Shown piece by piece: positions 2,645 through 55,078 of a DNA stretch of 64,000 bases; the first letter of the stretch is position 1, and each line of letters begins with the position of its first letter. A model generated the notes under the pieces. It saw nothing but the letters and a program-made list of their open reading frames with translations, was not told the origin of the DNA and searched no databases. Where the stretch lies: the IMG/VR virus record IMGVR_UViG_3300015608_004663; one strand, 5' to 3'. The stretch is from an uncultured virus (IMG/VR IMGVR_UViG_3300015608_004663) (Duplodnaviria; Heunggongvirae; Uroviricota; Caudoviricetes). The position numbers were made by a program, and so were the translations under genes.

Positions 2645-2676
2645 AGCACGTCAGGTCGCACTGCGCGATCATCCTG

Positions 2677-3360
2677 CGCGGTGACAAACTCTAACTCAAG
2701 ATCTTCTTCAGCAAGATCTCGCAGCTCAGACCAGCCTCTCAGTCTCACTGCCCCGCGGGGACGAGCGACTCGAGACCCTCCAGATCACTCACATCTGCTT
2801 GCAGATACTCTACAGCAAGAAGCTCGAAGCTGTCACAGATCGCCCCTCGTGGGCTCTAGCTCGCTGTCTCACCGTTGGTGAGCTGTCTCTCAGCTGGTCA
2901 CCGCGACAGCGCGATCATCTCTTCTATCAGATGATCTTTCAGAAGATATCTGCGCTTCAGGGGCAGCTCAGACAGCTCGCCCGCCGGGGAGCTCGCGAGT
3001 GGCTCTCAGCTGACGAATTCTTCTGAAAGATCATCTGCTGCAAGATGTTTTTTTGCGGTGAGATCTGCTCTCGAGGGGGCAGCAGAGCAGCAGTGAGATC
3101 TGCTAGAAGCAGTTGAAAGTGAGAGGAGCAGCGCGAGCAGAGGGGAGCAAAATCTGCTGCCGAGTGAGAATCTGATGAAAAATGCACAAATGAAACTTTG
3201 CGTAGATCTTTGATCCACGCGTATCACCCGATTCTCACTCTGATCTCAGTGCCTCCCCAGCCATCGCCACCGTCGGTGACCGCCTTCCTGAGCTCGCTCT
3301 CAAGCGCAGACCTCTCGATCTTCTCAGATCTCTCTCGCTCTCGCAGAGCTCTGATCTCGC
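2677..3360. repeat. Nested inverted-repeat (fold-back) region
   Basis: CGCGGTGAC/GTCACCGCG (2677/2897); 19-bp CAGATGATCTTTCAGAAGA IR (2928/3019); colinear IR series across 3058-3360. Confidence 0.7.
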
Positions 3361-3392
3361 TTGAGAGCGCCCTCGACGCGCGCGGGAGAGAA

Positions 3393-3422
3393 GTGCAATA
3401 GACTAGCCAGCTGAGTTACAGT
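3393..3422 (+). promoter_or_regulatory. Putative promoter GTGCAA-N18-TACAGT
   Basis: Recurring motif at the head of the small-ORF array. Confidence 0.6.
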
Positions 3423-3446
3423 GAGATCAGAGAGGGAGCAGACCGA

Positions 3447-3653
3447 GTGAGACCTGGAGATCTGATAAAGAGAGAGGGACTGTGGTTGACGCAGATCATC
3501 TTGCTTGTCTCAGTGAGCGAGAGCGATGACGAGAGCGAGCTTGATCTGTTCTCGCTGAAGCTGTGGCCTAGTCATGGATCGCTGGAGCTGACGCGCTTGA
3601 TTGGGTGGAGCGGCTGGGACTCTGTGCTTGTCTCCGCGTGGGAGCTGATCTGA
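3447..3653 (+). CDS. Small hypothetical protein (PGDLI family)
   Basis: MRPGDLIK; GGAG RBS upstream. Confidence 0.6.
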   Translation: MRPGDLIKREGLWLTQIILLVSVSESDDESELDLFSLKLWPSHGSLELTRLIGWSGWDSVLVSAWELI

Positions 3654-3654
3654 G

Positions 3655-3861
3655 ATGGATCGATCTAGTTCAGAGTCTGATCAGCTCTGGAGAGTGAGAG
3701 CGCCTGGCGTGCTGCTCACTTCACGGGGCTTCCTGCGCATCTTGATCGAAGTTCAAGCAGATGGGTTCGCAGACAGCCGGATCAGAGCTGATGACATAGA
3801 TCCAGATAGATCTAGCTTCCTGCACAGAGTCTGGAGGTGTGAGAGTGAAGTGGCTCCATGA
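3655..3861 (+). CDS. Small hypothetical protein (PGVLL family)
   Basis: Abuts the previous stop; APGVLL motif. Confidence 0.55.
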   Translation: MDRSSSESDQLWRVRAPGVLLTSRGFLRILIEVQADGFADSRIRADDIDPDRSSFLHRVWRCESEVAP

Positions 3862-4039
3862 AGAAGTTGGGCCTGGTCAGCTTGTCACAGTCTCTGGTGC
3901 AGTTCGAGTGATCGTTGAGTCTGACGAGACTGGTCCCCTCAAGTGGATCAGAGCGGATGAGCTCTCGCGAGGAGCGATGCTGTGGTCAGTTTTGAGAAGT
4001 TCAATCGACACCGCGCTTCGCTCAGGTGAAAAGTCGTGA
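3839..4039 (+). CDS. Small hypothetical protein (PGQLV family)
   Basis: GPGQLVTV motif; GGAGG upstream. Confidence 0.6.
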   Translation: MRVKWLHEEVGPGQLVTVSGAVRVIVESDETGPLKWIRADELSRGAMLWSVLRSSIDTALRSGEKS

Positions 4040-4218
4040 TCACTCTGTCAAATCTTGATCCCGGTGGGTTGATCCCGATCGGTTCGCCAAAAGCAGAGAT
4101 CTTGCTGCTTGTCATCGAAGCATCGGACTGTGTCAGGCCGCCAAGCTGCGTGATAAGGTTAGATCTTCGTGGAAAGAAATGCTCTATCGTGGTGACGCGA
4201 TGGCTAGATCAGCAGTAG
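4036..4218 (+). CDS. Small hypothetical protein (PGGLI family)
   Basis: GTGA overlap; LDPGGLI motif. Confidence 0.55.
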   Translation: MITLSNLDPGGLIPIGSPKAEILLLVIEASDCVRPPSCVIRLDLRGKKCSIVVTRWLDQQ

Positions 4219-4385
4219 GTGATCTTCTGTCAGTTAATGGTTTTATCATCATCGTTCTCGCTGTGACTGACAGCGAGACGATCTGCGCAGATCTTGACAC
4301 GTGGCGGTACTTTTTCAGCGTGAACAATCTTGGGTTGCCGAGTTCGTATAGAGTCCTCTGGTGCAGCTGTGATGAGATCCTCTGA
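4200..4385 (+). CDS. Small hypothetical protein (VGDLL family)
   Basis: ATG at 4200; AVGDLL motif. Confidence 0.55.
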   Translation: MARSAVGDLLSVNGFIIIVLAVTDSETICADLDTWRYFFSVNNLGLPSSYRVLWCSCDEIL

Positions 4386-4542
4386 AGATCGACAAGATCA
4401 AGCAAAGCTCGCGCCTGGTGATCTGGTCGATCTTGTTGTGATTGTGGCGATTCACTCTTTGCTGCCAGCAGCTTGGATCAGCATCGATTGTGGCAGGGCG
4501 CGTGCATCTATTGATCGCGCCGAAGAAAGCGATCAAAGATGA
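4372..4542 (+). CDS. Small hypothetical protein (PGDLV family)
   Basis: ATG at 4372; LAPGDLV motif. Confidence 0.5.
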   Translation: MRSSEDRQDQAKLAPGDLVDLVVIVAIHSLLPAAWISIDCGRARASIDRAEESDQR

Positions 4543-4867
4543 GCAGATCGGTGAGACAGCGCTTCTCACCCTGCAAAAGAAAACTGTCAGAAGATTGACA
4601 GATTCTGGTCTGTGCAACAGCGAGATAATCTGCTTAAGATCAGATCTGAAATGAACAAGCTAGCTGCGAGTTCTCTGCTTTAGTCAAGAGCACATCACTT
4701 TGATCTCTATCGCAGGAAGTAGGGATCTGAGCTGCTGATCATCACTCCCTCTTGCGAAAGAGGGAATCTTGCTCGCGTTGATCTGTGATCTGAATGCGCT
4801 GTCGTTTTCAGAAAAAGGTACGCCGTTGGGCCGCGGGATTGTTCGCTTTTAACTGAGTGTGAATCTT

Positions 4868-5056
4868 ATGAATTGGAAAGACTGGGACGATCTAACGCAA
4901 CCAGGAAATCTGCACAAGATTCCGTTAAAATCTGGTCTGTGCGTGCTATCTATGGTTGTGTCTACGGACAGATCTGGGTTCATCAAGTGTGCTCTTGATC
5001 TTGTGTCTGATCATCTTTATGTCGTGCAAGAAAATTCGCGCACGAGGCTGATCTAA
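4868..5056 (+). CDS. Small hypothetical protein (PGNL family)
   Basis: TQPGNL motif. Confidence 0.55.
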   Translation: MNWKDWDDLTQPGNLHKIPLKSGLCVLSMVVSTDRSGFIKCALDLVSDHLYVVQENSRTRLI

Positions 5057-5058
5057 GC

Positions 5059-5313
5059 ATGCGATCGACAAGCACTAAAGAATCTCCAGGATCTTTGTTT
5101 GTCACGGCGCACAACAGAACTTTGTTCCTGATCGTCAGCGAGCGCTGCCACTTGATTCTTGATTCAAAGCGCTGCACAATCTGGCGCAGATCTGTTGATG
5201 GCGTCACTCGAGCAATGGCTAGACTGCTGTGGAGCAAGAGCTGCCGAGCGCCAATTAAAAGATGTGATCCATGCAAAAACTCATTAACCTGCAAGAAACG
5301 CCAGGAACTCTGA
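5059..5313 (+). CDS. Small hypothetical protein (PGSLF family)
   Basis: ESPGSLF motif. Confidence 0.55.
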   Translation: MRSTSTKESPGSLFVTAHNRTLFLIVSERCHLILDSKRCTIWRRSVDGVTRAMARLLWSKSCRAPIKRCDPCKNSLTCKKRQEL

Positions 5314-5519
5314 TAACGAAGAAGCTAGTTGTTCAGTTCTGGAGAACGAGCACCTCGCTGCAGATAACAGTTTCAGTTCACAAGAGCTGCAATTTTTATT
5401 TGTGCGCTTTTCCTTCAGGAAAGGTAACGCTCGTGCGGGACGCTGCTGAGCAAGCGCAAGAAGAGCGTGTTCTCTACTCGCCAGAGTATTTTGATATGGT
5501 GACAAAGCTCGTGAAATGA
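5271..5519 (+). CDS. Small hypothetical protein (PGTLI family)
   Basis: ETPGTLI motif. Confidence 0.55.
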   Translation: MQKLINLQETPGTLITKKLVVQFWRTSTSLQITVSVHKSCNFYLCAFPSGKVTLVRDAAEQAQEERVLYSPEYFDMVTKLVK

Positions 5520-5623
5520 AAGCGCAATCATGGTTCTCAGCTAGCGGTCTGCAGTGATGCTCAGAGCAAGCGCAGTCAAGATCGCTTGGTGTTCAGAGAT
5601 CTTGATCGCAAAAGTGATCAAAC

Positions 5624-5890
5624 ATGTCAGAAGCTTACAGCAGAAATGCGTACTATGAACCTGGTGCGCTCATCATAACGAAAAGATCTGTGCATGACAC
5701 AGAACCAGTTTTCGAATTTGTGATTGCAGAAAAATTTGCTTTAGATCAATACGATGACAAGCAATTGAGAGTGACAAAACATATTTACAACATAAACGCT
5801 GATCATCGCGTAGAGCAAGTTGTGTTCTGGGACGGTTGCGCAGCACTTACGCAAGCACATGAGCGATCTAAGCAAAATTTTGACAGATAA
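5624..5890 (+). CDS. Small hypothetical protein (PGALI family)
   Basis: YEPGALII motif. Confidence 0.6.
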   Translation: MSEAYSRNAYYEPGALIITKRSVHDTEPVFEFVIAEKFALDQYDDKQLRVTKHIYNINADHRVEQVVFWDGCAALTQAHERSKQNFDR

Positions 5891-6088
5891 AATCACAGCA
5901 GCTGTATCATCATCAGTTGATGAAGCTCACGAGAAGATAAATCGCTTGCAAAACGTAGATCTTGGTCCGATTTTGCGATCTGCGATCAGGGATGCACTTG
6001 AATCAAAAGAAAATCATCGCAATGAATAAATGTGCACTTTGCAGTGCACTTTGATTAACAGCTGATATATATAAATTAAATCATAAAC

Positions 6089-6162
6089 GGGGATTGTACC
6101 TCAGCTGGTAGAGGGCTCGATTGAAACTCGAGATGTCGTGGGTTCGACTCCCATCGTCCCCG
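6089..6162 (+). tRNA. tRNA-Phe(GAA)
   Basis: Anticodon arm CTCGA-TTGAAAC-TCGAG; T arm GTGGG-TTCGACT-CCCAT; acceptor stem has a bulge; no encoded CCA. Confidence 0.85.
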
Positions 6163-6163
6163 C

Positions 6164-6247
6164 GGATAGGTGGCGGAAACGGCAGACGCGCAAGGCTCAA
6201 ACCCTTGTGCTCGCAAGAGCGTATGGGTTCGACTCCCATCCTATCTA
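6164..6247 (+). tRNA. tRNA-Leu(CAA)
   Basis: CAAGG-CTCAAAC-CCTTG; long variable arm; acceptor GGATAGG/CCTATCT. Confidence 0.9.
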
Positions 6248-6254
6248 CTTCCAA

Positions 6255-6354
6255 CAGAGAGTGGCGGAATTTATCTAGACGCGCTCGCTCCGCAGTTAAG
6301 CTTCTGCGAGTGAAGTCACAGTGCTTCGTGCAGGTGGGAATCCTGCCTCTCTGA
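6255..6354 (+). tRNA. Atypical Leu-like tRNA with enlarged anticodon arm
   Basis: Acceptor CAGAGAG/CTCTCTG, Leu-type D and variable arms, T loop TGGGAAT; 17 nt between CTCGC and GCGAG. Confidence 0.65.
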
Positions 6355-6355
6355 C

Positions 6356-6440
6356 GCGATAGTGGTGAAACTTGGTAGACACACTACGTTGAGAATGTAG
6401 TGCTCGAAAGAGCGTGTGGGTTCGACTCCCACCTTTCGCA
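6356..6440 (+). tRNA. tRNA-Leu(GAG)
   Basis: CTACG-TTGAGAA-TGTAG; long variable arm; canonical T loop. Confidence 0.9.
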
Positions 6441-6442
6441 CC

Positions 6443-6508
6443 GTCATAGATCAGAGTTCAAATCTCTGTTGCGTTACAAGCGCAATAGTTTAACGGTAAA
6501 ACAATGAC
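6443..6508 (+). ncRNA. Circularly permuted tRNA-like RNA (3' half before 5' half; YrlA-like topology)
   Basis: GTCAT, AGAT, T arm CAGAG-TTCAAAT-CTCTG, acceptor TTGCGTT-ACA-AGCGCAA, TA, D arm GTTT-AACGGTA-AAAC, A, ATGAC. Confidence 0.75.
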
Positions 6509-6517
6509 AACGCTTAT

Positions 6518-6592
6518 CTCTGCTTAGCGTAGTCTGGATAACGCACGAGTCTGCGAAGCTCGAGATCGTCAGTTCAAATCTGACAGCAGAGA
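6518..6592 (+). tRNA. tRNA-Arg(GCG)
   Basis: CGAGT-CTGCGAA-GCTCG; acceptor CTCTGCT/AGCAGAG. Confidence 0.85.
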
Positions 6593-6669
6593 CAGTCAGT
6601 GTTTGATTAAAATCGTGCCCGCTTCACACGCGCAACTAATCTTACAAACTAATCATCGCAGTCAATGCT

Positions 6670-6996
6670 GTGACAGATCAAACATTCACTGATCTTGACA
6701 AGATCAAGTCATCTGCAGAGATCTCTGCAATCTTCAAAAAATCTGATGGATTTTTAAGATCTTCGATGTTCACGGTTCGCTGGAATTCATCGGCGAGGCC
6801 GCGCTTAGCTGTCTGCTTAGCAAAAGTGAAGCGCGCAGTAGACAGAAATGCGCTGAAGCGCTGCGCAAGAGAAGCTTGGAGGACGCTTGATAAGCGACCG
6901 CCAGCAGATGTTGTCATCACCATCAACTCAGCTGCGATCGGGCAGACTAAAGAGCTATCAAAGCAGATCAAAATTTTCATGCACAAAATAAAATGA
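6670..6996 (+). CDS. rnpA: Ribonuclease P protein component
   Basis: KIKSSAEISAIFK, PRLAVCLAK and RNR-like motif KRAVDRNALKRCARE; 108 aa. Confidence 0.85.
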   Translation: MTDQTFTDLDKIKSSAEISAIFKKSDGFLRSSMFTVRWNSSARPRLAVCLAKVKRAVDRNALKRCAREAWRTLDKRPPADVVITINSAAIGQTKELSKQIKIFMHKIK

Positions 6997-7211
6997 ACAG
7001 CGATACACTGACACAGGTTAGCATTGTGTTTGACAACAGAGAATACGTTTGCTGGATACCGTCGCAGTTCGCTGCGCGCGGCAAGATCATATCAATTGAT
7101 GGTGTCGTAGAGCGCGGTGCTGTGAAAGATGTTTACTCTACTGTCAGCTACAGCGCAGCGAGAGAAAGATCTTCTGATTGGTCAAGGCAGCGCCGCGCAT
7201 CAGATATATAA
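6993..7211 (+). CDS. Hypothetical protein
   Basis: Overlapping ATG start. Confidence 0.6.
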   Translation: MNSDTLTQVSIVFDNREYVCWIPSQFAARGKIISIDGVVERGAVKDVYSTVSYSAARERSSDWSRQRRASDI

Positions 7212-7216
7212 TTTGT

Positions 7217-7801
7217 ATGAATTTCGCGCACAAACGATTGCTTCTCAGTTTTCTTAGAGAAGTGCTCGCTGTCAAGCACAAAGATTATGAGATATCTTCT
7301 AGATCTGATGCAGCTGACGAGATAAAACATGATGTGTTTCAGATAATCAAAAAATCTTACGATAAGATCGGTGGACACTCAAAGATCTCAAGCCCTGATG
7401 ACATAAAATCAGAGTATGATGACTGGATCGTTGCTGACACTGATGAAGATCCTGACATAGATGTTTTTGTTGGCGGAAACAAGAGAGGTTCAGGAATGAA
7501 GCTCGGTGCATCAGCTACTGATGGCTCTGCAGAAGCAAAGAATCACATGCTAAAGCTGAAGAAAAAGCTGTTTAGCAACGGCTGGTGGGCTGAAACTTCT
7601 GGTGCAGCCGCGCACATCGCGATCAACAAGCTCGGCGTTCCAACAGTCACAGACGAAAAAACAGTCAAGAAGCTGCTTGGTGATAAGCAGATCACTTGGC
7701 ACGGGCAGCACCCACATGGTGAATTTTCAAACACCTATGGTTGGTACTCCAGAAACATCGGCGGGCACGAACACATCAAGATCATTGTTGGTGATGTTTG
7801 A
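7217..7801 (+). CDS. Hypothetical protein (possible virion-internal protein)
   Basis: Long ORF; likely ATG at 7217. Confidence 0.7.
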   Translation: MNFAHKRLLLSFLREVLAVKHKDYEISSRSDAADEIKHDVFQIIKKSYDKIGGHSKISSPDDIKSEYDDWIVADTDEDPDIDVFVGGNKRGSGMKLGASATDGSAEAKNHMLKLKKKLFSNGWWAETSGAAAHIAINKLGVPTVTDEKTVKKLLGDKQITWHGQHPHGEFSNTYGWYSRNIGGHEHIKIIVGDV

Positions 7802-7811
7802 AATTTTAATT

Positions 7812-7841
7812 GTGCATACTGTCTTGCAATTTAAGTAGTAT
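7812..7841 (+). promoter_or_regulatory. Putative promoter GTGCAT-N18-TAGTAT
   Basis: Recurring motif 8 nt before a tRNA. Confidence 0.55.
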
Positions 7842-7849
7842 TTTTACAT

Positions 7850-7941
7850 GGGACGGTAGCTCACTGGTGGAGCAGGTGGCCTTATAAACCACTGTACGGT
7901 CTGATATACCGAAGGATTGGGTTCGATTCCCGACCGTCCCA
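7850..7941 (+). tRNA. tRNA with UAU (Ile) anticodon and long variable arm
   Basis: Acceptor GGGACGG/CCGTCCC, loop CTTATAA, variable hairpin CGGT...ACCG, T loop TTCGATT. Confidence 0.8.
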
Positions 7942-7942
7942 C

Positions 7943-8485
7943 ATGAACAAGACAATGTGTCGATTGTTGCTAATGACCACGTTAGCAGTGATGAATTGTG
8001 GTGATGCTGGTGTCGCGATATATGCAAGCGAGCCAGTGTGCGTAAAATCTGAATCAGGAACGACAGACACAGATCAGAAAATAATCTGCAAGATCTCTGG
8101 CTGTCCAGAAGATAAGATTATTGCAGAAGCTTTCTCAGTCGAAGACAAACCAGTCAGGTTGTTTTCTGTCAGAGTCAAACAGCCACATGCTCTGTATAAA
8201 TTGTGCATGAAAGTCACAGCAAAAGATGTGCTGAATGATCTTTCAGCTACAGCACCAGTTCAGTTTGTTCTTATTCGAGACGATTATGACAAAACAGTCA
8301 GAACGCTTGCGACAGCGTATGGTGCTATTGGAGACAGACAAGTCTCTAACATCGCTGTTGACGGTCGTGAAATATATGATGGTTCATATAATGTGATCGG
8401 TTATCCAAACACACCAGGCGGTCAACTCCAAGCGCTTCAGTGGAATGTGACAGGATGGATCGAGCGCTTGCGTAACTCATACTGA
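7943..8485 (+). CDS. Putative lipoprotein/secreted protein
   Basis: Hydrophobic leader ending in AVMNC. Confidence 0.6.
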   Translation: MNKTMCRLLLMTTLAVMNCGDAGVAIYASEPVCVKSESGTTDTDQKIICKISGCPEDKIIAEAFSVEDKPVRLFSVRVKQPHALYKLCMKVTAKDVLNDLSATAPVQFVLIRDDYDKTVRTLATAYGAIGDRQVSNIAVDGREIYDGSYNVIGYPNTPGGQLQALQWNVTGWIERLRNSY

Positions 8486-20045: not shown

Positions 20046-20048
20046 GCG

Positions 20049-20139
20049 AAGAGCGTGTGAGATTCGAACTCACGTGTCAGCTTGCGCGCCGACAGCCTGT
20101 TTAGCAAACAGGTGCATTAAGCCTCTCTGCCAACGCTCT
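20049..20139 (-). tRNA. tRNA-Ser(GCT)
   Basis: CCTGT-TTGCTAA-ACAGG; long variable arm. Confidence 0.9.
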
Positions 20140-20140
20140 G

Positions 20141-20233
20141 AGGAGAGAGCAGGATTTGAACCCGCGGATCAGACTTTCATCCAATCATCCGTTTTCAAGA
20201 CGGTTGCCTTAAACCAGACTCAGCCATCTCTCC
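20141..20233 (-). tRNA. tRNA-Ser(TGA)
   Basis: Acceptor GGAGAGA/TCTCTCC; loop CTTGAAA; long variable arm. Confidence 0.9.
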
Positions 20234-20234
20234 G

Positions 20235-20308
20235 TGCTTGCTGCCGGATTCGAACCGACGACATCGACTGTGTAAAAATCGCGCTCTGCCAATCTGAGCT
20301 AAGCAAGC
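20235..20308 (-). tRNA. tRNA-Val(TAC)
   Basis: CGATT-TTTACAC-AGTCG; acceptor GCTTGCT/AGCAAGC. Confidence 0.88.
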
Positions 20309-28962: not shown

Positions 28963-29517
28963 TCACTTTCTGCCAAGCAGTGGATGGTGCTTATAGCAAA
29001 CAGGTTCGTATGCTTCTGGACCACCTATCTTCACATCTTGTTCAGTTGGTTGTGAGCCATGTTTGAAGCTTGTGAATCTTGCATTTGCGCCACACACTAC
29101 GCAGACTGCATGAAGCTTATTGACAGCAGTAGCAATGCTAAGCAACTTCATAGATTCTTCAAATGGAATGCAACTTGCAGACAGATCAAGAGTTGATACA
29201 GATGCAGAGCAACCACGCATGAAATTATCCATGATTGCATCAGCTATGCCTTTGATCATAAAGGCTTCATCCACAGCAACAAACGTTGCTGTTTTTGTGA
29301 TCTCTCGAAACTCTTCTGCGCTCTCAATCGCAATAGCTTGCACGCTAAGACCCATGTGAGTGATAACAGAGTTATGAGCGTAGCGAGTGTCTATCTTGGG
29401 CTTCACTATAACAACATTATCACGACGATACTTGGCTCTCTCTGCGTCAACAAGCAAGTGAGTAGTCTTTGAAGCCATCATTGGGCCGCAGTAAACTGTG
29501 ATAGATGGTTCAATCAT
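28963..29517 (-). CDS. tdk: Thymidine kinase
   Basis: GPMMASKT, VDEAFM, CVVC, IGGPEAYEPVC. Confidence 0.92.
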   Translation of the reverse strand: MIEPSITVYCGPMMASKTTHLLVDAERAKYRRDNVVIVKPKIDTRYAHNSVITHMGLSVQAIAIESAEEFREITKTATFVAVDEAFMIKGIADAIMDNFMRGCSASVSTLDLSASCIPFEESMKLLSIATAVNKLHAVCVVCGANARFTSFKHGSQPTEQDVKIGGPEAYEPVCYKHHPLLGRK

Positions 29518-30482
29518 CTGAATGACTCAAACGCCCAACCGTGCCATGCGCACTTTTCTTTGATAAGAGCGTAACTTTCTTGTTTCAATCCGTTCTTACG
29601 CAACCAAAAAGCACCAATCAGCACTATGAAATCAAACCAGTATTCATCAATCTCGCTTGAAGCTCGAGACAGCACGTTTTCAACATCAGAGACTGATGCA
29701 GCACTGCGCAGATCTTGCTCTGCTTGAAGCATTTTTTCTAATGGGGGTTTTGATTTCATCTCTGGCATAGAGATCGATGCTTGCTTGCTATTGTTTGCAA
29801 GAACAATATTAACTTTATCAAAATCACGCTCGTAGATGTGCACTGATCCACCAGTGTGATTGTAAGATCCAAGTTTCACACCAAGCTCTAGCGCCATCAG
29901 CTCTTGAAAAAGAGTAAACGCTGGAACGTCGTTGGCAAGACCTAACCACAGATCTGAGCTGCGCATAGAGGCCCACATGTGGAGCGCGCTGTCTCTGATA
30001 AAGAACTGAAAGCCAATCGTGCAAGGAACATCAAGTTTCGCATGAAACGAATCGTGTGGCAATCTAATGTGAATGAACGCGCGGCGAGAATCTGGATCGC
30101 GCGTCAGCTCTTGCTTCACCCACTCCCACTGAGAGTGATTTATGCCCAACTCTGAAGCTTGCTTAAAGATCCTAGCGCCGTAGGCGGAATTCACATTAAC
30201 GCCATCATCAGATATCTTTGTCCAGAACGGAGCGTAGGGTGCAATCCAATTTACAGATCTAATACCTGCAAGATACCAAAGGCACTCAGCTGCCATGTAC
30301 TGAGGACTGTACAGTCGGCCGCTTATAAAGGGTAATCTGTGTCGAGGATTTGTGATTTTAAAAGATGAACACAAATTTTCTTTTATAAACTGTCCTCGTG
30401 GAGAGCAAGTAAACTCTGCTTCTTGAGCAACAGAGCGCAATTCAGCTAAATAAGCATCTGTGAACGTTTCAAATGATTTCAT
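29514..30482 (-). CDS. Thymidylate synthase-family enzyme, predicted dCMP hydroxymethylase
   Basis: PCT, MRSSD, GLAND (Asp where ThyA has Asn177), SVHIYE. Confidence 0.8.
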   Translation of the reverse strand: MKSFETFTDAYLAELRSVAQEAEFTCSPRGQFIKENLCSSFKITNPRHRLPFISGRLYSPQYMAAECLWYLAGIRSVNWIAPYAPFWTKISDDGVNVNSAYGARIFKQASELGINHSQWEWVKQELTRDPDSRRAFIHIRLPHDSFHAKLDVPCTIGFQFFIRDSALHMWASMRSSDLWLGLANDVPAFTLFQELMALELGVKLGSYNHTGGSVHIYERDFDKVNIVLANNSKQASISMPEMKSKPPLEKMLQAEQDLRSAASVSDVENVLSRASSEIDEYWFDFIVLIGAFWLRKNGLKQESYALIKEKCAWHGWAFESFR

Positions 30483-36419: not shown

Positions 36420-37017
36420 AAGTCTGACAATCTTCCAGAAATTTAGTGATAGTTGAAATTTGTTGCTCTAAATTCTCACTATCAACGCAAAGTTTTAAAG
36501 TGCGGCACCGAGTGAATTCGCTGATGAAGCGAGCGTATGCATCAGATAATTCTTGCAATTTTTCAGAATTTATGCTCGGATCAATATCATCACACAGATT
36601 TTCATACGTTGTTCTGTAGCAGAAAATGATCTTTGCATCAAGTGATGCGTACGAATCATCTTCTAACCTGAGCATCTTGTGATCTGTTTCTCTGTTAGTC
36701 ACTGCAGAGTAAACATACTCGCATGGATATCCACGATCAAAGATCACAGATAGATTAGTTTGCTTGATCAGATCAAACACTCGCATATCAGCGTATCGTA
36801 GCTGATTCAGAAACAGCTCTCGCTTGTTAGCGAAAGAATTGTGCTCAGATGATGCTTTGAAATAAGCGATGTTCAAGCGCTGCGCAAGAGCTTTAGCGAT
36901 GTTTGTTTTACCAGTTTTGTCTGGTCCGACAAAAAAAATTATCTGCTGCGCACTATTCGTGTTCTTAAGCAAGGTGCACCAATCTGTTTGTTGAGTAACC
37001 AAACGCTGACTTTTCAA
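36367..37017 (-). CDS. Deoxynucleoside monophosphate kinase (thymidylate kinase-like)
   Basis: GPDKTGKT, IFDRGY; start uncertain. Confidence 0.8.
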   Translation of the reverse strand: MKSQRLVTQQTDWCTLLKNTNSAQQIIFFVGPDKTGKTNIAKALAQRLNIAYFKASSEHNSFANKRELFLNQLRYADMRVFDLIKQTNLSVIFDRGYPCEYVYSAVTNRETDHKMLRLEDDSYASLDAKIIFCYRTTYENLCDDIDPSINSEKLQELSDAYARFISEFTRCRTLKLCVDSENLEQQISTITKFLEDCQTYENKRIDQAAVGTRSDW

Positions 37018-38488
37018 GCGGAGCCATCATGATTGACATCTTTTTTACATCTTGCACAGACCAAACGTAAATTTTGTTCACTTTTCCAACTGGTCCGATG
37101 GCATCGATAAGAAGATACTGCTTCTTATTTTTTGATGTTTTCTTTGTCACGTTTTGCACGCAAAACCAAGCTACATCGCTTTCGTCTTCATCAACATCAT
37201 CTATAGATGGTACGTTTCTTTCGATCAGCTTTTCCATAACTCTATCTGGGATCAGCAGCGATACATCTGCTGATCCGACGATCTTGACAACGTTGTTCAT
37301 TTTTTCTTCGCGAGTCCACGGAGCTATATGAGCCGTTTCAAGCGCTAGCGCGCGCATCGTGTCACGCCCTTTGAAAGGATCTTTCTTAGTTGATTTTTTC
37401 AACTCATCCCAGTGACCGATGATAACGTCATGCATCTGCTTGTAATTTGCAAAGATGCAATTTTCACCAACGCACTTCAAAGAATCAAGACCCTGCACTA
37501 AAATAAGAGCTTCCAAAGCTCGCTTGTTAAACTTTGACAAGCGCCAAGATCCGTCTTCATTCCAGAACAGATCTTCTATAGATGAGAATGGCCGCAGCTG
37601 AAGAATCTCATCAATCGCTGTTTCACCTATGCCCTTGTACGAACTGAATGATGGCATAAGCTGCTTGCCGGGAAGCGCTGTCCACTGTCGCTCTGCGTAA
37701 TTGATGTCAACGTTCACTATCTTGTATCCAACTGCTCTGATCTCAGAGAAAGCTTTAGATCTGTCATCGGGATTCTTGGACATTGACTGCAGATACGCAC
37801 AAACCCACTCTGTTTCATGAAACGTCATCAGCCACGCGCAAAAATAACTGTCGATGGCATACGATACAGCGTGTGCTGCGTTAAATCCATAACCAGCGAA
37901 CCACAAAATTCTATCATAGAGATTCTCTGCAATCTGCACAGAGTACCCATTTTTCACGCAACCACTCACGAAACTATCGCGCATAGCTTGCGCTTTTTTC
38001 TTGGCATCTTCGCCGCCGCCAATGGTTCGCTTCATGATCGCTTTGCGCAGCTTGTCGCACTCTTCAAGAGGAAATCCAGCAACTTCGTGTGCTAGTTGCA
38101 TAACTTGCTCTTGAAAAATAATCAAACCATTAGTTTTTTTTAACACTTCATTGATGCGCTTATCGCCCCAATCGTACTCTTTGCCGTTTCTAGCGTCAAC
38201 ATAAAGCTGATCAACTTTCGCAGCAAGTGGACCAGGTCTGTAAATAGACGTCAACGTAGCAATGTCAACAATTGACTTTGGTTTTGCGCGCTTGAAAAAG
38301 CGCTGTGCCCCACTTTGCGTGCACTGAAAAACGCCAGCCCACTTTCCTTTGTGATAGATGTTTTCATATACTTTCTGGTCGTGAAGATCAACTACGTCTG
38401 GTGCTAAATTGTTATTATACCAGTCTTTGATTTCAGAAAAATCAACATTACTACCATCTGTAAGTTTCACAGATTTAACAATCGCCAT
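36965..38488 (-). CDS. dnaE: DNA polymerase III alpha, C-terminal half of a split gene
   Basis: GVFQ, IYRPGP, IIFQEQVM, AGYGFNAAHAVSY, KGIG. Confidence 0.95.
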   Translation of the reverse strand: MAIVKSVKLTDGSNVDFSEIKDWYNNNLAPDVVDLHDQKVYENIYHKGKWAGVFQCTQSGAQRFFKRAKPKSIVDIATLTSIYRPGPLAAKVDQLYVDARNGKEYDWGDKRINEVLKKTNGLIIFQEQVMQLAHEVAGFPLEECDKLRKAIMKRTIGGGEDAKKKAQAMRDSFVSGCVKNGYSVQIAENLYDRILWFAGYGFNAAHAVSYAIDSYFCAWLMTFHETEWVCAYLQSMSKNPDDRSKAFSEIRAVGYKIVNVDINYAERQWTALPGKQLMPSFSSYKGIGETAIDEILQLRPFSSIEDLFWNEDGSWRLSKFNKRALEALILVQGLDSLKCVGENCIFANYKQMHDVIIGHWDELKKSTKKDPFKGRDTMRALALETAHIAPWTREEKMNNVVKIVGSADVSLLIPDRVMEKLIERNVPSIDDVDEDESDVAWFCVQNVTKKTSKNKKQYLLIDAIGPVGKVNKIYVWSVQDVKKMSIMMAPLEKSAFGYSTNRLVHLA

Positions 38489-39853: not shown

Positions 39854-40792
39854 TTATTTTGCGCTAGCTAATTTTTCTAATTTTAGAAGAAATTCTGAAC
39901 TCTCACGCTTGCCTAAAGCGCTAAAATTCAGATCGTGACTTGCAACAATATCACGCAAGCTCAAACCTGATTCGCTGATCATGTTTATCACTGTTAGAAG
40001 CGCAGAAAGCTCTTGTTTAGAAAGCGTAATTGCAGAAAGTCTGTAATCATCAAAAGCAGCAGCGACATCTGGCACCCATTGTTTTACGATATTCCACATA
40101 GCATCTGCGTACACTCTGATCTCATACTGAGCGTGCTTGTCTAAGCGCAGCGCCAAGAAGTGCAGAAGGTTGTGCAGATCGATCTTCCAGTACATCTCAG
40201 TATAATAATTCAATGACAGACTCATTCTAGCTAACTCTCTAGCTAGCTGCGGCCGATCTCGATCAATTGCAGCACCAGTTCCATCATCATTTAGTAGATG
40301 AGCGTAAACATCATACGCTTGCTCAGAATGCTTGCTGATTGCATCAATGATATCATCACAAATCTCTGATTGCATCATCGTGTCAGTCAGATCACGACCT
40401 TGCTTGTTTGTTACGCTCTGTTCACCAAGCGCATTAGCATCAGGGATGTAAAACTCACGATTGAGAATTGAATATCTTGCTGAGTACTCATTGATGTTTG
40501 CTGTGCGATGACGAATCCACTGCCTAGCAACGAAGATCGGAAGCTTGATGTGCAGCTTGATCTCGCACATCTCAAACGGCGTAGTGTGACGATGTCGCAT
40601 CAAGTAGCGAATCAGCGCAACATCTTCTGAAACTGTTTTCGTTCCAGTGCCGTATGATACGCGGGCAGCTTGCACAATCGCAGACTGATCACCCATGTAG
40701 TCTATGACTCGAATAAAACCGTGATCAAGAATGTTGATTTTGTTGCCTAAAATTTCATCCAGTGCTGCACTGTTAATTCGACGCTCTTGCAC
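39854..40792 (-). CDS. thyX: Flavin-dependent thymidylate synthase
   Basis: AARVSY, HTTPFE, RQWIRHRTANINEYSARY, HAQYEIR. Confidence 0.97.
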   Translation of the reverse strand: MQERRINSAALDEILGNKINILDHGFIRVIDYMGDQSAIVQAARVSYGTGTKTVSEDVALIRYLMRHRHTTPFEMCEIKLHIKLPIFVARQWIRHRTANINEYSARYSILNREFYIPDANALGEQSVTNKQGRDLTDTMMQSEICDDIIDAISKHSEQAYDVYAHLLNDDGTGAAIDRDRPQLARELARMSLSLNYYTEMYWKIDLHNLLHFLALRLDKHAQYEIRVYADAMWNIVKQWVPDVAAAFDDYRLSAITLSKQELSALLTVINMISESGLSLRDIVASHDLNFSALGKRESSEFLLKLEKLASAK

Positions 40793-42117: not shown

Positions 42118-44349
42118 TTATCGCAATTCTTCTACATCATCTCCTTCACGCAAATCTTTGACCAAAACTTCTCCACGATTCTTTGTTACAGCAATAGCAT
42201 CACCGAACGCGTAGAACGCTCCAAGGTCAGTATCAACTTCATACCAACCTCTAGTTTTTCTGTCGGATGTGATTATCAACTCTATAGTTTTTTCAACAAT
42301 GCGCAGCGTATCAAGACCCAGAAGATCAAACTTGATCCAACCAAACTGGTCAAGTTCTTTTACGTTAACACCTTCTGCCCACGGCGTTTGAAGCTCACCC
42401 TTTGAAGCGATCAGCGGCATCCTTTCAGCAATTCTATCACAAACAATGACACCGCCAGCGTGTCGGCCAAGCGAGCGCTGCTGCTTAAACAGCGTCGCGA
42501 TCGGTCCAGCAACTTCTGGATGGGCATCGATGAAAGATTTGAATGACGGACTGTGCTGCATAGCATCTTCAAACTTCAACACAAATAGATTCTTATCATC
42601 GCCGTGCTTGAGCGTCGCTTTTCTGACTTCGGCTTCAACTGTTTTTGTTGCAATGTTAGCTTCTTCAAACGGCACACCGTAAAATTTAGCAACGTCTTTG
42701 ATAAGAGTTTTCAGCTTGAAAGTATTGTAGTTGCTGATTGGCACAACATTTTCTGCACCAAAACGCTCTTTAAGCAGTTCAATAAGTTTAGCTCTGTTTG
42801 AGACGTCTGTGTCAACGTCTGGAGCTTCTTCGCGATACTTGTTAAGAAACCGCTCAAACAGAAGATCATACTTGATTGGATCAACATCAGTTATTTTTAG
42901 TAGATACGTCACAAGCGAACCTGCACCAGATCCTCGGCCAGGTCCGACGAGCATGGCTTCTTGAGCTACGTGAATGATCTCTCGCAAAGTCAAAAAATAC
43001 TCTGCAAATTTTTTATCTTTGATGACGTCAAGCTCTTTAGCTAAGCGCTCTTCATAAGTTTTATTTCCTTTAAACTTTCGCTCAATCATGCCAGCTTCAC
43101 ACAACTCAACAAGACGAGCATCGGCTGTCATGCCAGCTGGCACGACGATAGAAGTTGGCAATTTCATTGAACGATCTGGCTGCACATCTCCAATCACGTT
43201 GTGCGCTACGTGGTGAGAGCGTTCAATGGCATCAATGATCTCATCATCGTCATAAAAATTATTGTCTTGCTTGTGCTCAAGATACGCGCTCCAAACTTGA
43301 GATGCATTTTTTGGGTATAGCTCTGCTTTCAGCTCTGAAACAGAGTTTGGAAGCTTTGTTTGATTTGGATCTGCGTTTTTTAACCAACCTAATTTTTTGT
43401 AGATTTCACGCTCGCGCCACAGCTCAGGTCTTGGATAGTGACTATCTGTTGCTACAATCAGTTGCTTTGTGAGCGAGTGCTTTCTAGCAAAGTCAAGAAG
43501 CGCTCTGTTAACGTATCCCTGAGCTTTCAATCTGTTGAATTGCATCTCAAAGTAAACATTTTGCTCTCCAAAAGCCCACAGCAGCTTATCATAAGCTGCA
43601 TCAAGCTCTGACATGACAGCTTTGTGCAGAGACGCATTATCAAGCAGCGAGCTGTCAATGTTTTCAAACTTAATTTTTTGCGCAGATGACAAAGCAGCGT
43701 AAGCTAGCGGTCCGCCAACGCAAGCTGTCAACGCAATCAAGTGACCACCTGTTGCAGCTTCTTTTAACATAGCGTAATCAACGCGAGGAAAGCGATAAAA
43801 CCCATCTGAGTAGCTTCGCGAGATAAGATGAAATAAGCGCTGCAGTCCTGTGCTTGTAGTTGGAATGACTACAAGATGATGACGTCTGTTAATTGGATTG
43901 AAGTACTTTGTTGATTTTGACTCTTCTTCACGCTCAATCGTGAGCGCGTTTGTTGTCTCAAGCTCAATTGACTCATCATCATCATCTGTTGTAGATACAA
44001 TCGGCGTAACGATCTCTTGCTCGTTAAGCATTTCTTGCTTGTGAGCAAGATCGTCTTCTGCGCGATCTTTTGATCGCTCGTACTCAGCTCTCCATTCATT
44101 TAAATCAGGATGAACGTACATTTCGCAGCCAGCGATAAATTTAAACTTCTTGTCTTGTTTCTTAAGCTTCTCTGAAAAAAGAAACGCAGATGCGTATGAA
44201 TTGCAGTGACCGTGCTCAGTGAGCGCCCACGCATCCATACCATTTTCTAATACAAATTTGATGTGTTCTTCAGGAGAACCAAGTCCATCATAAACAGACA
44301 TGCCAGTGTGACTGTGAAGTCCCACAAATTTGGTTGGTGATGTTTTCAT
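42118..44349 (-). CDS. dnaE: DNA polymerase III alpha, N-terminal half (PHP + palm) of a split gene
   Basis: LHSHT..S..DG, GRGSGAGS, FERFLN, PDVDTD, HAGG, KFDLLGL. Confidence 0.95.
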   Translation of the reverse strand: MKTSPTKFVGLHSHTGMSVYDGLGSPEEHIKFVLENGMDAWALTEHGHCNSYASAFLFSEKLKKQDKKFKFIAGCEMYVHPDLNEWRAEYERSKDRAEDDLAHKQEMLNEQEIVTPIVSTTDDDDESIELETTNALTIEREEESKSTKYFNPINRRHHLVVIPTTSTGLQRLFHLISRSYSDGFYRFPRVDYAMLKEAATGGHLIALTACVGGPLAYAALSSAQKIKFENIDSSLLDNASLHKAVMSELDAAYDKLLWAFGEQNVYFEMQFNRLKAQGYVNRALLDFARKHSLTKQLIVATDSHYPRPELWREREIYKKLGWLKNADPNQTKLPNSVSELKAELYPKNASQVWSAYLEHKQDNNFYDDDEIIDAIERSHHVAHNVIGDVQPDRSMKLPTSIVVPAGMTADARLVELCEAGMIERKFKGNKTYEERLAKELDVIKDKKFAEYFLTLREIIHVAQEAMLVGPGRGSGAGSLVTYLLKITDVDPIKYDLLFERFLNKYREEAPDVDTDVSNRAKLIELLKERFGAENVVPISNYNTFKLKTLIKDVAKFYGVPFEEANIATKTVEAEVRKATLKHGDDKNLFVLKFEDAMQHSPSFKSFIDAHPEVAGPIATLFKQQRSLGRHAGGVIVCDRIAERMPLIASKGELQTPWAEGVNVKELDQFGWIKFDLLGLDTLRIVEKTIELIITSDRKTRGWYEVDTDLGAFYAFGDAIAVTKNRGEVLVKDLREGDDVEELR

Positions 44350-47974: not shown

Positions 47975-48949
47975 TTAGCTCCTATTTAACCATTTGCTGG
48001 GTAATGTAATTGTGTAAAATTCACGTTGATCTGAATCAGGAATGTATTTTTGTTTAATTTTTTTGCGATTAGCTACGCCAGCTATTTCTGGGTGACGCAA
48101 TCGAGCGTATTTGCTTATCTCGCAGAAAAGATTCTGACAATCTATAAGCTTTAACTTTCTGCCAAACAGAGTTTGAAATTTTAAATCTCTTTTCTCAAAT
48201 TCACGGTCTTGAGCGATGCACACTTCTTTGATTATGTTTTCTAGCGTTGTTATTGATGCATTTGAAAAGCACTTTGATATTCCATCAATAGCACCCGGAC
48301 CGGGAACGATAAATTCATTCTCATCAAAATCAACAATGTCTGTGTAATTCAGATCAATCGCTAACTGATACGCTAGAAACGGACCAAATGATGGATAGCT
48401 TAGCAACAGCTTGTAAAGTGATTCGAGACTAGTCGTTGCTTTTACTTTTGAAGCAAACCGATCTGTCATCATCAATTCAATCAATTTTAGATGATCTGCG
48501 TGCTTAGATGATTCACCCAATCTCGGCGACGGCATCATGTACGCAGCGCTGTACAGCGCTACGCCAGCAGCTTGCAGCTTTGTTAACACATCAGCATACG
48601 CAGCTCTGTCAAACGATTCATATCTGATATCAATGAACACATCTCTTAAAAAGCGCCACGTTTCAATCTTGTTGAAGAGCTTAAACAGCAAAACTCGAAA
48701 CGTAACTTCTTCAGCGCTTTGCTCGCCTTGTCTGATCACGTCAGTTATCAAAAACTGACTAACTTTATCAGACACTCTGTAGGGATTTGTAAATCTATGA
48801 TTAGCAATGATCGAATCATCTGTCCATGGTGGTGGATCGCCCGCAAGACGCTTAAGCAGAACTGCTTGTCTCTCAGCAGCAAAATACCAATATGAATCAT
48901 AAACGCAAGTTGGTGAAGCACTTTGAATCACAGTCATCAAACAATCCAA
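47975..48949 (-). CDS. aGPT-Pplase/5-hmdU DNA kinase helical-domain family protein
   Basis: YFAAERQ, PPPWTDD, FTNPYRVSD, GPFLAYQ, GPGA, QNLFCE. Confidence 0.75.
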   Translation of the reverse strand: MDCLMTVIQSASPTCVYDSYWYFAAERQAVLLKRLAGDPPPWTDDSIIANHRFTNPYRVSDKVSQFLITDVIRQGEQSAEEVTFRVLLFKLFNKIETWRFLRDVFIDIRYESFDRAAYADVLTKLQAAGVALYSAAYMMPSPRLGESSKHADHLKLIELMMTDRFASKVKATTSLESLYKLLLSYPSFGPFLAYQLAIDLNYTDIVDFDENEFIVPGPGAIDGISKCFSNASITTLENIIKEVCIAQDREFEKRDLKFQTLFGRKLKLIDCQNLFCEISKYARLRHPEIAGVANRKKIKQKYIPDSDQREFYTITLPSKWLNRS

Positions 48950-52137: not shown

Positions 52138-53049
52138 TTAAAATTCTCTATCATCAAGTTGAAAAACAGTCAATCCAACAGAGCGCCAAAATTTGACAAC
52201 TGACACTCTATCATCAAACACAGCTACGATGTTGTAGCGACCGTAGACATGATCTGCGTAAAGATCTGCTTTGACAAATTCATCTTTTCGCAGATCGTTT
52301 TCTTTTCTCATGTGCAGAGTAAGATCTGTTGTCGCAAAACTATAGTGTCTCTGCAAACTGCGAACAGTTGATTCTCTATACAGCTCAGATCTACCGCTCA
52401 TGAATATTGGCTTGATATCATCTTTCACAAGAGACAGAACAACTCTTTGCACTGCAGGACAGGGAACATCTACTACATCGCAATTTGTTGCATCGTAAGG
52501 ATTTCTATCACCAATGATCATCGCAGTTCCATCAAGATCTATGATGACAGCGTCTTGCAATGATGCATCTTGCGAAGATGGTTGTCTTTCTTTTCTAGCG
52601 GGAAAGATCTCAATGATATCTTCTGGCCAGCCAGATGACCATTGTGATTTTTTCCACATTCTCATGATAACGTTTTCACCAACTGAAAACTGCGGTGCGC
52701 GAGCAGCGTCTCTAGCAATGCACTCAGTGGGACCAACTTTAAACAATCTTGTGCTTAATTTCACGTTTCCAACTTGGTGGGCGATAGCTCTGTATACATC
52801 GATGTCTCGCTCAAGAATGTGAGTGCAATCTGCAATGACATCTACGCCAGCAAAAAGCATTTTTCGAATCGCGTCTACGAACAATGAATGAACAAGATTC
52901 TCATTATCACCAGATTTCACTCCAAGCATCAATCTAATATCATCTTTAGATGCTCTGTAAACTGTGGGTGAGCACATCTGCTTCGCAACTGTAGATTTAC
53001 CGCTGCCTGGCAGTCCTCTGAAAATTATGAGATTTTTCATCTGATTCAC
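52138..53049 (-). CDS. pseT: Polynucleotide 5'-kinase/3'-phosphatase (T4 PseT-like)
   Basis: GLPGSGKS, DLDGT, SGR, FDDR. Confidence 0.9.
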   Translation of the reverse strand: MNQMKNLIIFRGLPGSGKSTVAKQMCSPTVYRASKDDIRLMLGVKSGDNENLVHSLFVDAIRKMLFAGVDVIADCTHILERDIDVYRAIAHQVGNVKLSTRLFKVGPTECIARDAARAPQFSVGENVIMRMWKKSQWSSGWPEDIIEIFPARKERQPSSQDASLQDAVIIDLDGTAMIIGDRNPYDATNCDVVDVPCPAVQRVVLSLVKDDIKPIFMSGRSELYRESTVRSLQRHYSFATTDLTLHMRKENDLRKDEFVKADLYADHVYGRYNIVAVFDDRVSVVKFWRSVGLTVFQLDDREF

Positions 53050-54431: not shown

Positions 54432-55078
54432 GGATTCACCTCTTTCTTTGTTAGTGTTGACAGATACATCATTATGTGATCGTTTAACACAGATCTGATA
54501 TTGTCAGATACGTCTGCAATAGTTCCATCTGCGCTCACTGCGATTACGCTTTTGTTATCACAAAATTGTGTGTACAAGCGTTTCACTCGATCTTGCAAAG
54601 TAACATCTGCTTCATACGAATCTTGAGCGCTGCGTGAAAGACGCTCATCACTTGATCTAGTCAGCACTACACTGATATCTGGTTCTCGAAGAACGCTGCC
54701 AAGTGTTTTGATCAATGAAATTGATAAACCGCTTGCTGCTCCATACACAACAGATGATAGGTGCCACCTATCAAAGATTATGATATCTTCTTTTGCAAAG
54801 AGCAGTCTTGTCTGACAAATCAATTTATTCAAAAGCTGCAGAAGCTGAAACAGCAGGGGATGACGAACAGCAGCGCCAGAGAATAACATATGATAGATGA
54901 TCTTGTGTGTAACATGATCATTGAACGGAGTTTTGATCGCTAGTGCAGATACACCAGCTTCAGTCAAACTACGATGCAAAATTTTTGCTTGCGTAGTTTT
55001 ACCCGTCATATCACATCCTTCAAAAGCAATAATCAATTTTTTATTGAGCATCAGTTTGTCTCGCGTTAGTGTCATCAT
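54428..55078 (-). CDS. tmk: Thymidylate kinase
   Basis: FEGCDMTGKTTQ, DRW..S..VY, PD. Confidence 0.85.
   Translation of the reverse strand: MMTLTRDKLMLNKKLIIAFEGCDMTGKTTQAKILHRSLTEAGVSALAIKTPFNDHVTHKIIYHMLFSGAAVRHPLLFQLLQLLNKLICQTRLLFAKEDIIIFDRWHLSSVVYGAASGLSISLIKTLGSVLREPDISVVLTRSSDERLSRSAQDSYEADVTLQDRVKRLYTQFCDNKSVIAVSADGTIADVSDNIRSVLNDHIMMYLSTLTKKEVNP

Follow-up and report, generated by a model that had tools for sequence, protein, structure and literature searches.

A divergent RNase P protein subunit gene behind a compact tRNA cluster in an uncultured phage

The 64,000-nucleotide stretch of the uncultured virus IMGVR_UViG_3300015608_004663 (IMG/VR; hereafter the window, meaning the whole stretch analysed) carries an open reading frame (ORF), at 6670–6996, which by sequence and modelled structure is a genuine, divergent bacterial-type RnpA, the protein component of RNase P. 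The phage most likely brings this protein subunit only, and we put at roughly 0.55 the probability that it joins the RNase P RNA (P RNA) of the host and so maintains or increases RNase P activity towards the tRNA precursors of the phage. The encoded protein has the family signature, fold and RNA-binding residues of RnpA, and its gene stands in a phage context, within a tRNA-rich, same-strand string of genes in which tRNAs meet at N73-C joints (discriminator followed by a single C); that it would bind host P RNA, raise activity or alter the preference for substrates is inferred. What is new is the carrier and the setting, the protein itself being a divergent member of a well-known family.

The protein was assigned to RnpA because a Pfam match, sequence matches to solved structures, the predicted fold and a basic pI all agree. 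The match to PF00825 (Ribonuclease_P) scored 43 bits (E 5.3e-11; cut-off 22.3) and aligned residues 9–107 to profile positions 4–108 of 109, that is, over nearly the full length of the profile. In a sequence search of solved structures, E. coli RNase P protein chains were the best matches (E 2.6e-4), and the T. maritima and S. aureus chains ranked next. An AlphaFold2 model built from 37 aligned sequences had a mean pLDDT of 93 and a pTM of 0.85, with helices (H) and strands (E) at H15–23, E27–30, E34–40, E45–50, H56–71, E79–85 and H93–106; this order of helix, three strands, helix, strand and helix agrees with the RnpA topology described in PMC4919922. When the model was compared with the PDB by Foldseek, ranks 1–13 were all bacterial RNase P proteins with TM scores of 0.56–0.84 (0.72–0.84 for the top ones), the best being 0.84 to 4JG4 (rmsd 1.7 over 106 columns), and the folds after rank 13 reached at most 0.45. 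The RnpA/C5 reference structures were 2LJP and 7UO0 (E. coli), 1A6F and 4JG4 (B. subtilis), 1NZ0 and 3Q1Q (T. maritima) and 6D1R (S. aureus). The first-pass annotation had called the protein a clear RnpA, a view that the lack of any RnpA profile match would have undermined; the match found lies above the Pfam cut-off, and the model and its structural neighbours point the same way. The frame is intact and full length, and the encoded protein is most likely a functional RnpA, as judged from its sequence. The GTG start is supported by the nearest relative, P0002, whose alignment begins at residue 4.

Residues 56–64 of the protein read AVDRNALKR. In the 37-sequence alignment R59, N60, R64, R67, E68 and R71 were invariant and R45, A56, K63 and D80 nearly so, and every one of these is present in the phage protein, including all the P RNA-binding basic residues of helix 2 (R59, N60, K63, R64, R67 and R71). 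The motif had initially been singled out as a variant RNR motif, a description that does not survive the alignment: the residue after RN in the 37 nearest proteins is R in 20, K in 7, A in 4 and L in 2, with H, Q, T and V in one each, so that A61 occupies a position that is variable by nature and is no sign of altered function. The clade to which the phage protein belongs is marked instead by a 2-residue deletion before the RNR helix, by A47 where most proteins have G, by W70 where most have F and by I18 where most have an aromatic residue. Of the aromatic positions in helix 1 and the sheet, two are filled by F22 and F34, but the first is taken by I18, as it is by I in P0002, P0011, P0020, P0025 and P0037; going by work on B. 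subtilis RnpA, these residues would line the leader-binding cleft.

Close relatives of the protein are few. A HMMER search over 1.84 billion representative proteins returned only 38 at E ≤ 1e-3, with a single close relative, P0002, which is 52% identical to the phage RnpA and has the motif DRNHLKR. A profile of the clade recovered three clusters, P0001, P0002 and P0049, at 177–237 bits, the next match scoring 48 bits; identities within this clade are 46–54%, and the functional residues are retained. The nearest cellular proteins, mostly gammaproteobacterial, are ~30–43% identical to the phage protein and, since no cellular protein among the representatives came closer than ~43%, the gene was not captured recently. 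A tree of 91 rows and 126 columns paired the phage RnpA with P0002 (SH-aLRT 94), and this pair, on a long stem, fell within no well-supported set; it was placed neither inside nor outside Pseudomonadota or Bacteroidota, and no donor can therefore be named. Peptide-pattern scans of viral contigs (IMG/VR) and of metagenome contigs revealed no relatives of the phage RnpA or of P0002. At E ≤ 0.01 neither the phage RnpA nor four of the five further RnpA proteins matched any PHROG family; the fifth, P0012, had a weak match (E 0.0018) to a family of unknown function.

The rnpA gene follows a compact string of RNA genes on the same strand (Table 1). tRNAs were accepted where ARAGORN (default settings) and Rfam agreed, which gave eight in the window. 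All eight end in the discriminator plus one C, an encoded CCA occurs in none, and where two tRNAs abut the downstream one starts immediately after the terminal C of the upstream one. The GTG of rnpA lies 76 nt past a cluster of four of these tRNAs and two non-canonical tRNA-like elements, X1 and X2. An arrangement in which rnpA comes directly after tRNAs only 1–9 nt apart, as first proposed, thus holds in part: rnpA does follow the cluster, but 76 nt separate the end of tRNA-Arg at 6593 from the GTG at 6670, and the spacing is correct only if the gaps 6249–6355 and 6443–6517 count as tRNAs, both of which are left uncalled by ARAGORN at default settings and by Rfam at E ≤ 5. In the usual cellular neighbourhood, rpmH-rnpA-yidD-yidC, which is typical rather than defining, the gene keeps different company; no rpmH, yidD or yidC setting surrounds the rnpA of the window, its neighbours being tRNAs and ORFs without a family, and the 76-nt upstream gap is too short for rpmH. 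A consensus scan detected no plus-strand terminator-like site between the tRNA cluster and rnpA or after rnpA, and the simplest reading of these pattern scans is a single transcript that runs from the tRNAs through rnpA into the ORFs behind it. Promoter-like sites were no more numerous here than in shuffled sequence, and the match upstream of tRNA-Phe is thus a suggestion only. According to PMC4919922, RNase P cleavage leaves a 5′ phosphate and a 3′ hydroxyl, and so a single cut at an N73-C joint would both free the 5′ end of the downstream tRNA and give the upstream one an N73-C-OH end. No CCA-adding enzyme, RNA ligase or RNase Z was found among the ORFs scanned in the 64 kb.

That RnpA is rarely described in phages, as the first-pass annotation had stated, agrees with our searches. 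By tblastn against 50,697 phage records the phage RnpA gave no match and the RnpA of Cycloclasticus (P0005) gave five, among which no genuine case came to light: two Salmonella genome contigs, one 3.7-kb unannotated record and two ‘UNVERIFIED’ Campylobacter phage records. Of the two ‘UNVERIFIED’ records, the one inspected, MG065691.1 (Campylobacter phage A11a; our locus L001), was rejected as a phage rnpA because its segment 50691–63008 is an E. coli-type dnaN-dnaA-rnpA-yidD-yidC-mnmE block, and this chromosomal block indicates that the record is contaminated or mis-assembled. A literature search, with subscription journals and the supplements of huge-phage surveys outside its scope, found no paper on a phage-encoded RnpA.

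A second and different viral RnpA clade (L082–L100) was recovered from IMG/VR, where the AVDRN pattern led to eight loci and a clade profile to 11 of ~2.9 million contigs. These contigs are of 15.7–483 kb with a GC content of 27–37%, and their RnpA proteins are 93–114 aa long (the L086 ORF being longer), have the canonical RNR and are 28–38% identical to the RnpA of the window; PF00825 was passed in six of the six scanned (41–50 bits). Their neighbours encode ClpP, NUDIX, HNH, PrkA/SpoVR, an RNA ligase and many unknowns, and yidC, yidD, dnaA and mnmE lie beside none of the eight loci. The tree took in five of the seven distinct ORFs (L085 and L087 were left out by the ORF filter), and these five rows formed a well-supported clade nested inside Bacteroidota RnpA, with the window pair apart and unplaced. 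Because this clade nests separately, phages have acquired rnpA at least twice, which argues that its acquisition pays for phages. In L088, a 15.7-kb fragment, the RnpA gene lies inside a tRNA array (16 tRNAs by ARAGORN, 20 by Rfam), and another RnpA of the clade is encoded in a 476-kb record with 59 tRNAs. In L087, a tRNA with anticodon CTA lies 3.2 kb from the RnpA gene.

No RNase P RNA was found in the 64-kb window with Rfam at E ≤ 5, and the P4 motif occurred there seven times against 11.2 expected, that is, below chance. Likewise, neither class A nor class B P RNA was detected at E ≤ 1 in five records of the second clade, two of them 97–98% complete by CheckV, whereas the same search applied to 14 control genomes found class A in 11 and class B in nine. 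The earlier suggestion that the protein might pair with a phage RNA thus finds no support in the window or in these five records.

Loading of the phage protein on host P RNA is most likely, since the RNR helix is kept and no P RNA gene was found in the window or in five records of the second viral clade. We propose that the conserved RNR helix would bind the host P RNA to form a hybrid holoenzyme, which would sustain or raise RNase P activity while the polycistronic, butt-jointed, CCA-less tRNA precursors are transcribed. A single RNase P cut would then yield the 5′ end of the downstream tRNA and leave the upstream one as N73-C, ready for CCA completion, and the phage would benefit from the processing of its polycistronic tRNA transcripts while host gene expression falls. 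Earlier work provides the background for such a scheme: bacterial RnpA and P RNA of different species are interchangeable, and RnpA contacts the 5′ leader in the region of N(−4) to N(−7), raising substrate and metal affinity (PMC4919922); in B. subtilis, RNase P levels rose when RnpA was overexpressed (PMC1874595); and rnpA49 is suppressed by amplification of either subunit gene (PMC11251521). That the protein might also change the handling of leaders, as first proposed, is a reasonable suggestion. At N73-C joints the ‘leader’ is the paired acceptor strand of the upstream tRNA, and the handling of such nearly spacer-less tRNAs by RNase P is called unresolved in a recent review (PMC11143913).

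That the gene is phage-encoded, as first noted, is borne out by dense PHROG and Pfam phage matches across the window. PHROG matches were obtained for 22 of 30 window ORFs tested, among them a two-piece DnaE-type polymerase, a DnaB-like helicase, a UvsX-like recombinase, SSB, an ATP-dependent ligase, ribonucleotide reductase and thymidylate-synthase homologues, a dCMP deaminase, a T4-type polynucleotide kinase and GroEL; Pfam added a 5-hydroxymethyluracil (5-hmdU) DNA kinase (346 bits), an HNH endonuclease, an amidase, two NUDIX proteins, a dUTPase and an MT-A70 methylase. By this gene content the window is a replication and nucleotide-metabolism module of a large phage without a close isolate, and the phage itself is most likely large and lytic. 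PHROG and Pfam detected no capsid or tail genes among the ORFs of the window, from which it follows that the genome is larger than 64 kb; the phage RnpA protein is also recorded on contigs of up to 69,384 bases. The DnaE piece, the 5-hmdU kinase and GroEL are at most 31% identical to any phage record, and a scan of IMG/VR with the DNA ligase of the window revealed no related phage. The stretch is present in runs labelled wastewater metagenome, two studies having large shares (runs with small shares were excluded from this habitat reading). A 3006-nt DNA contig from a second study covers 5600–7947 with two changed letters and one gap, and with no change in rnpA; since it bridges this segment, the junction between the tRNAs and rnpA is not an assembly artefact.

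The two tRNA-like elements of the cluster differ in kind. X1 was called only when introns were allowed, as tRNA-Ala(CGC) interrupted by a 10-nt intron. Its 7-bp acceptor stem is perfect, its variable arm is long, its T loop (TGGGAAT) is odd and its end is a discriminator A plus C; Rfam gave no match to it at E ≤ 5. Among contigs from RNA libraries, one carries X1 with a single changed letter and others with many indels at 6288–6323. X2 was folded by RNAfold into a cloverleaf (−15.2 kcal/mol) in which the order of the arms is permuted: an anticodon-stem 3′ strand, a 4-nt variable loop, a canonical T arm and an acceptor 3′ strand lead to ACA, after which come an acceptor 5′ strand, U8/A9, a canonical D arm with GG, position 26, an anticodon-stem 5′ strand and a 9-nt tail. 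The acceptor 3′ strand is followed by A and C, as in real tRNAs, and the junction lengths (2/1/4/0) suit a tRNA in the permuted reading only. In genomic order X2 gave no ARAGORN call and no Rfam match at E ≤ 5. When the element was duplicated in tandem, so that default ARAGORN could read any circular permutation, a 74-nt tRNA with a 7-bp acceptor stem was called in the permuted frame alone (6479–6517 plus 6443–6477). In controls, none of 400 random 75-mers was called and three true tRNAs were called in the linear frame, but the tandem device also yielded a chimeric call, with a poorer acceptor stem, across the Phe/Leu joint. Because chimeric calls arise at joints of real tRNAs, the permuted call alone is not decisive, and a sliding tandem-duplication scan of 5901–8100 was dropped as a discovery tool, since it gave such calls wherever real tRNAs abut.

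The letters of the X2 anticodon loop allow no arrangement with U33 or a purine at 37, and the acceptor linker consists of ACA only; lacking such an arrangement, X2 is taken as a permuted tRNA-like RNA and not as a decoding tRNA. It may be what remains of a tandem pair, or else an RNA that functions without decoding. Contigs of two RNA-library runs hold the cluster in diverged form, and one loose end among them has a T-arm-like start at the place of X2; to judge from this start, X2 seems conserved. An exact 26-nt piece of X2 is absent from IMG/VR, and a literature search found no paper on permuted tRNA genes in phages.

Table 1. Features around rnpA and the second tRNA cluster of the window
Feature	Position	Strand	Basis and remarks
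Terminator-like hairpin closing the upstream ORF 5820–6029	6032–6049	+	Consensus scan, pattern match only
Weak sigma-70-like promoter match, upstream of tRNA-Phe	6055–6084	+	9/12 matches
tRNA-Phe(GAA)	6089–6163	+	ARAGORN, Rfam
tRNA-Leu(CAA)	6164–6248	+	ARAGORN, Rfam
X1, tRNA-like	6255–6355 (gap 6249–6355; 101–107 nt)	+	ARAGORN with introns allowed
tRNA-Leu(GAG)	6356–6442	+	ARAGORN, Rfam
X2, cloverleaf with circularly permuted tRNA arm order (3′ half, ACA, 5′ half)	6443–6517	+	RNAfold, ARAGORN
tRNA-Arg(GCG), last RNA gene before rnpA	6518–6593	+	ARAGORN, Rfam
rnpA, RNase P protein subunit	6670–6996	+	108 aa, GTG start, pI 10.5; PF00825
ORF, 72 aa, ATG overlaps rnpA stop (ATGA)	6993–7211	+	No PHROG or Pfam match
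tRNA-Ile(TAT), 93 nt, same strand and gene string as rnpA	7850–7942	+	ARAGORN, Rfam
tRNA-Val(TAC)-Ser(TGA)-Ser(GCT), second butt-jointed cluster, N73-C joints only	20048–20308	−	ARAGORN, Rfam

Several observations weigh against a contribution of the phage RnpA, through host P RNA, to the processing of phage tRNAs. The NCBIfam equivalog TIGR00188 scored 35.4 bits, slightly under its cut-off of 38.35; the P RNA search covered 64 kb of a larger phage genome; and contigs from RNA libraries cover the tRNA cluster, partly as diverged relatives and possibly through DNA carry-over, and not rnpA, so that they bear on its expression in neither direction. A link between RnpA and phage tRNAs is, moreover, not general, since three of the five second-clade records hold few tRNAs (4, 1 and 0, at 98%, 89% and 52% completeness). 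Nor is a phage RnpA obviously needed, because in T-even phages host RNase P alone processes very similar precursors, closely spaced and partly CCA-less (PMC11143913). The records of huge phages with RnpA and few tRNAs also argue for a role beyond phage tRNAs, such as competition with host RnpA to redirect or block processing, or RNA decay without P RNA, as has been suggested for S. aureus RnpA. Foldseek ranked first two S. aureus RnpA entries titled on mRNA-degradation activity, and the deletion before the RNR helix, W70 and A47 set the clade apart. We nevertheless consider a takeover or moonlighting role of this kind unlikely, given that all the alignment-invariant residues are kept, as expected of normal holoenzyme assembly, that the 108-aa protein consists of a single Pfam domain with no nuclease or other added domain, and that a position behind a tRNA cluster, or within a tRNA array as in L088, suits tRNA processing. 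The great rarity of phage RnpA would fit a captured cellular gene that decays without a role in the phage life cycle, but such a passenger is quite unlikely in view of the intact, full-length frame, of functional residues kept in a clade with ~50% identity, of the distance from every cellular protein sampled, of a GC content (0.456) inside the 0.38–0.48 range of the 14 window genes computed and of the identity of rnpA in the second-study contig.

It is improbable that RnpA makes of the host ribozyme a phage-specific RNase P for leaderless, N73-C-joined tRNAs and for X1 and X2, with X2 a true permuted tRNA: RNase P would have to open the ACA-closed acceptor end of X2, and an RNA ligase and the phage T4-type polynucleotide kinase (52138–53049) would have to seal its open anticodon end. 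A complete phage RNase P, in which RnpA pairs with a phage P RNA outside the window or too divergent for the Rfam models, would be compatible with a genome seen only in part (structural genes are absent from the window, and the protein occurs on a contig of 69,384 bases) and with a segment of ~3 kb (2650–5600) that has short ORFs only; it is very improbable in the light of the P RNA and P4 searches of the window and of the five second-clade records, set beside their positive controls. That the stretch is not phage at all, but a cellular or chimeric contig, is hardly credible: the lack of capsid and tail genes and the foreign look of the GC-rich segment 2265–2650 are outweighed by dense PHROG matches that include the UvsX-like recombinase and the T4-type polynucleotide kinase, by the HNH endonuclease and the high-scoring 5-hmdU DNA kinase, by the independent contig bridging 5600–7947 and by the absence of the cellular rpmH/yidD/yidC neighbourhood. 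The remaining probability goes to something we have not considered.

Other features of the window deserve mention. The tRNA-Ile(TAT) downstream of rnpA has a long variable arm, unusual for Ile, and the ATG (7943) of the next ORF directly abuts its terminal C, leaving no space for a ribosome-binding site; this is reminiscent of tRNA punctuation yielding a leaderless mRNA. A Shine–Dalgarno-like 4–5-mer, even a weak one, precedes only 13 of 42 well-supported gene starts, the upstream regions being A-rich, and the GroEL matches are to Flavobacterium phages; this sparse use of Shine–Dalgarno sites and the GroEL matches hint at a Bacteroidota-like host. The 5-hmdU DNA kinase (PF18723, 346 bits) and the two thymidylate-synthase-like genes, at 47975–48949, 29514–30482 and 39854–40792, point to hypermodified thymidine in the phage DNA. 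GATC occurs 626 times in the window against ~250 expected from length alone, and an MT-A70 family methyltransferase gene lies at 55041–55691. The DnaE-type polymerase is split, with ORFs 36965–38488 and 42118–44349 matching the C- and N-terminal parts of phrog_405 and several genes between them. At 3447–4542, inside the ~3-kb stretch that has no long ORFs, plus-strand ORFs of 60–70 aa follow one another back to back; a PGDL(I/V)-like word recurs in several of them, and they may be small paralogues of one family. The GC-rich segment 2265–2650 holds a 126-aa ORF without a Pfam family, followed near 2563–2580 by a sequence resembling the 5′ part of a tRNA (acceptor and D arm), where no complete tRNA was called; the segment may be a foreign fragment or an attachment-site remnant.

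Large phages carry tRNAs, tRNA-repair and CCA-adding enzymes, aminoacyl-tRNA synthetases and ribosomal proteins, and a phage-encoded RNase P subunit would extend this list to the first step of tRNA maturation. If our reading is correct, a virus that supplies only the protein partner of a host ribozyme would be a natural experiment on the mixing of RnpA and P RNA. The permuted tRNA-like element and the strict N73-C joints raise the interest of the locus beyond that of rnpA alone; if the reading with a phage-specific RNase P were true, the maturation of X2 would be the first such pathway for a permuted tRNA in a virus of bacteria.

Compared with bacterial RnpA/C5, the protein of the window is phage-encoded, lies beside tRNA genes instead of in an rpmH-rnpA-yidD-yidC setting, is at most ~43% identical to the cellular proteins found, falls below the TIGR00188 cut-off, and has the 2-residue deletion and A61, A47 and W70 in place of the usual R/K, G and F. 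The second viral clade resembles it in consisting of short RnpA proteins on viral contigs where no P RNA was found, in one case within a tRNA array, but differs in its separate origin (Bacteroidota type), low-GC contigs and canonical RNR. Circularly permuted tRNA genes occur in the red alga Cyanidioschyzon merolae. X2 is like these in that a 3′ half lies upstream of a 5′ half with which it pairs into a full cloverleaf, and unlike them in that its acceptor ends are joined by 3 nt only, its anticodon loop is non-canonical and its setting is a phage of bacteria, for which no splicing-endonuclease pathway is known. The tRNA cluster of T4 contains two small stable RNAs, which X1 and X2 resemble in position. 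T4 depends wholly on the protein and RNA of host RNase P, whereas the phage of the window adds an RnpA and its spacing is stricter (N73-C in all eight tRNAs). Like the window, T4 has closely spaced tRNA genes, some of them CCA-less, whose products are separated by RNase P (PMC11143913), and with respect to the question of nearly spacer-less tRNAs raised in the same review, N73-C joints together with a dedicated RnpA would provide both defined substrates and a protein.

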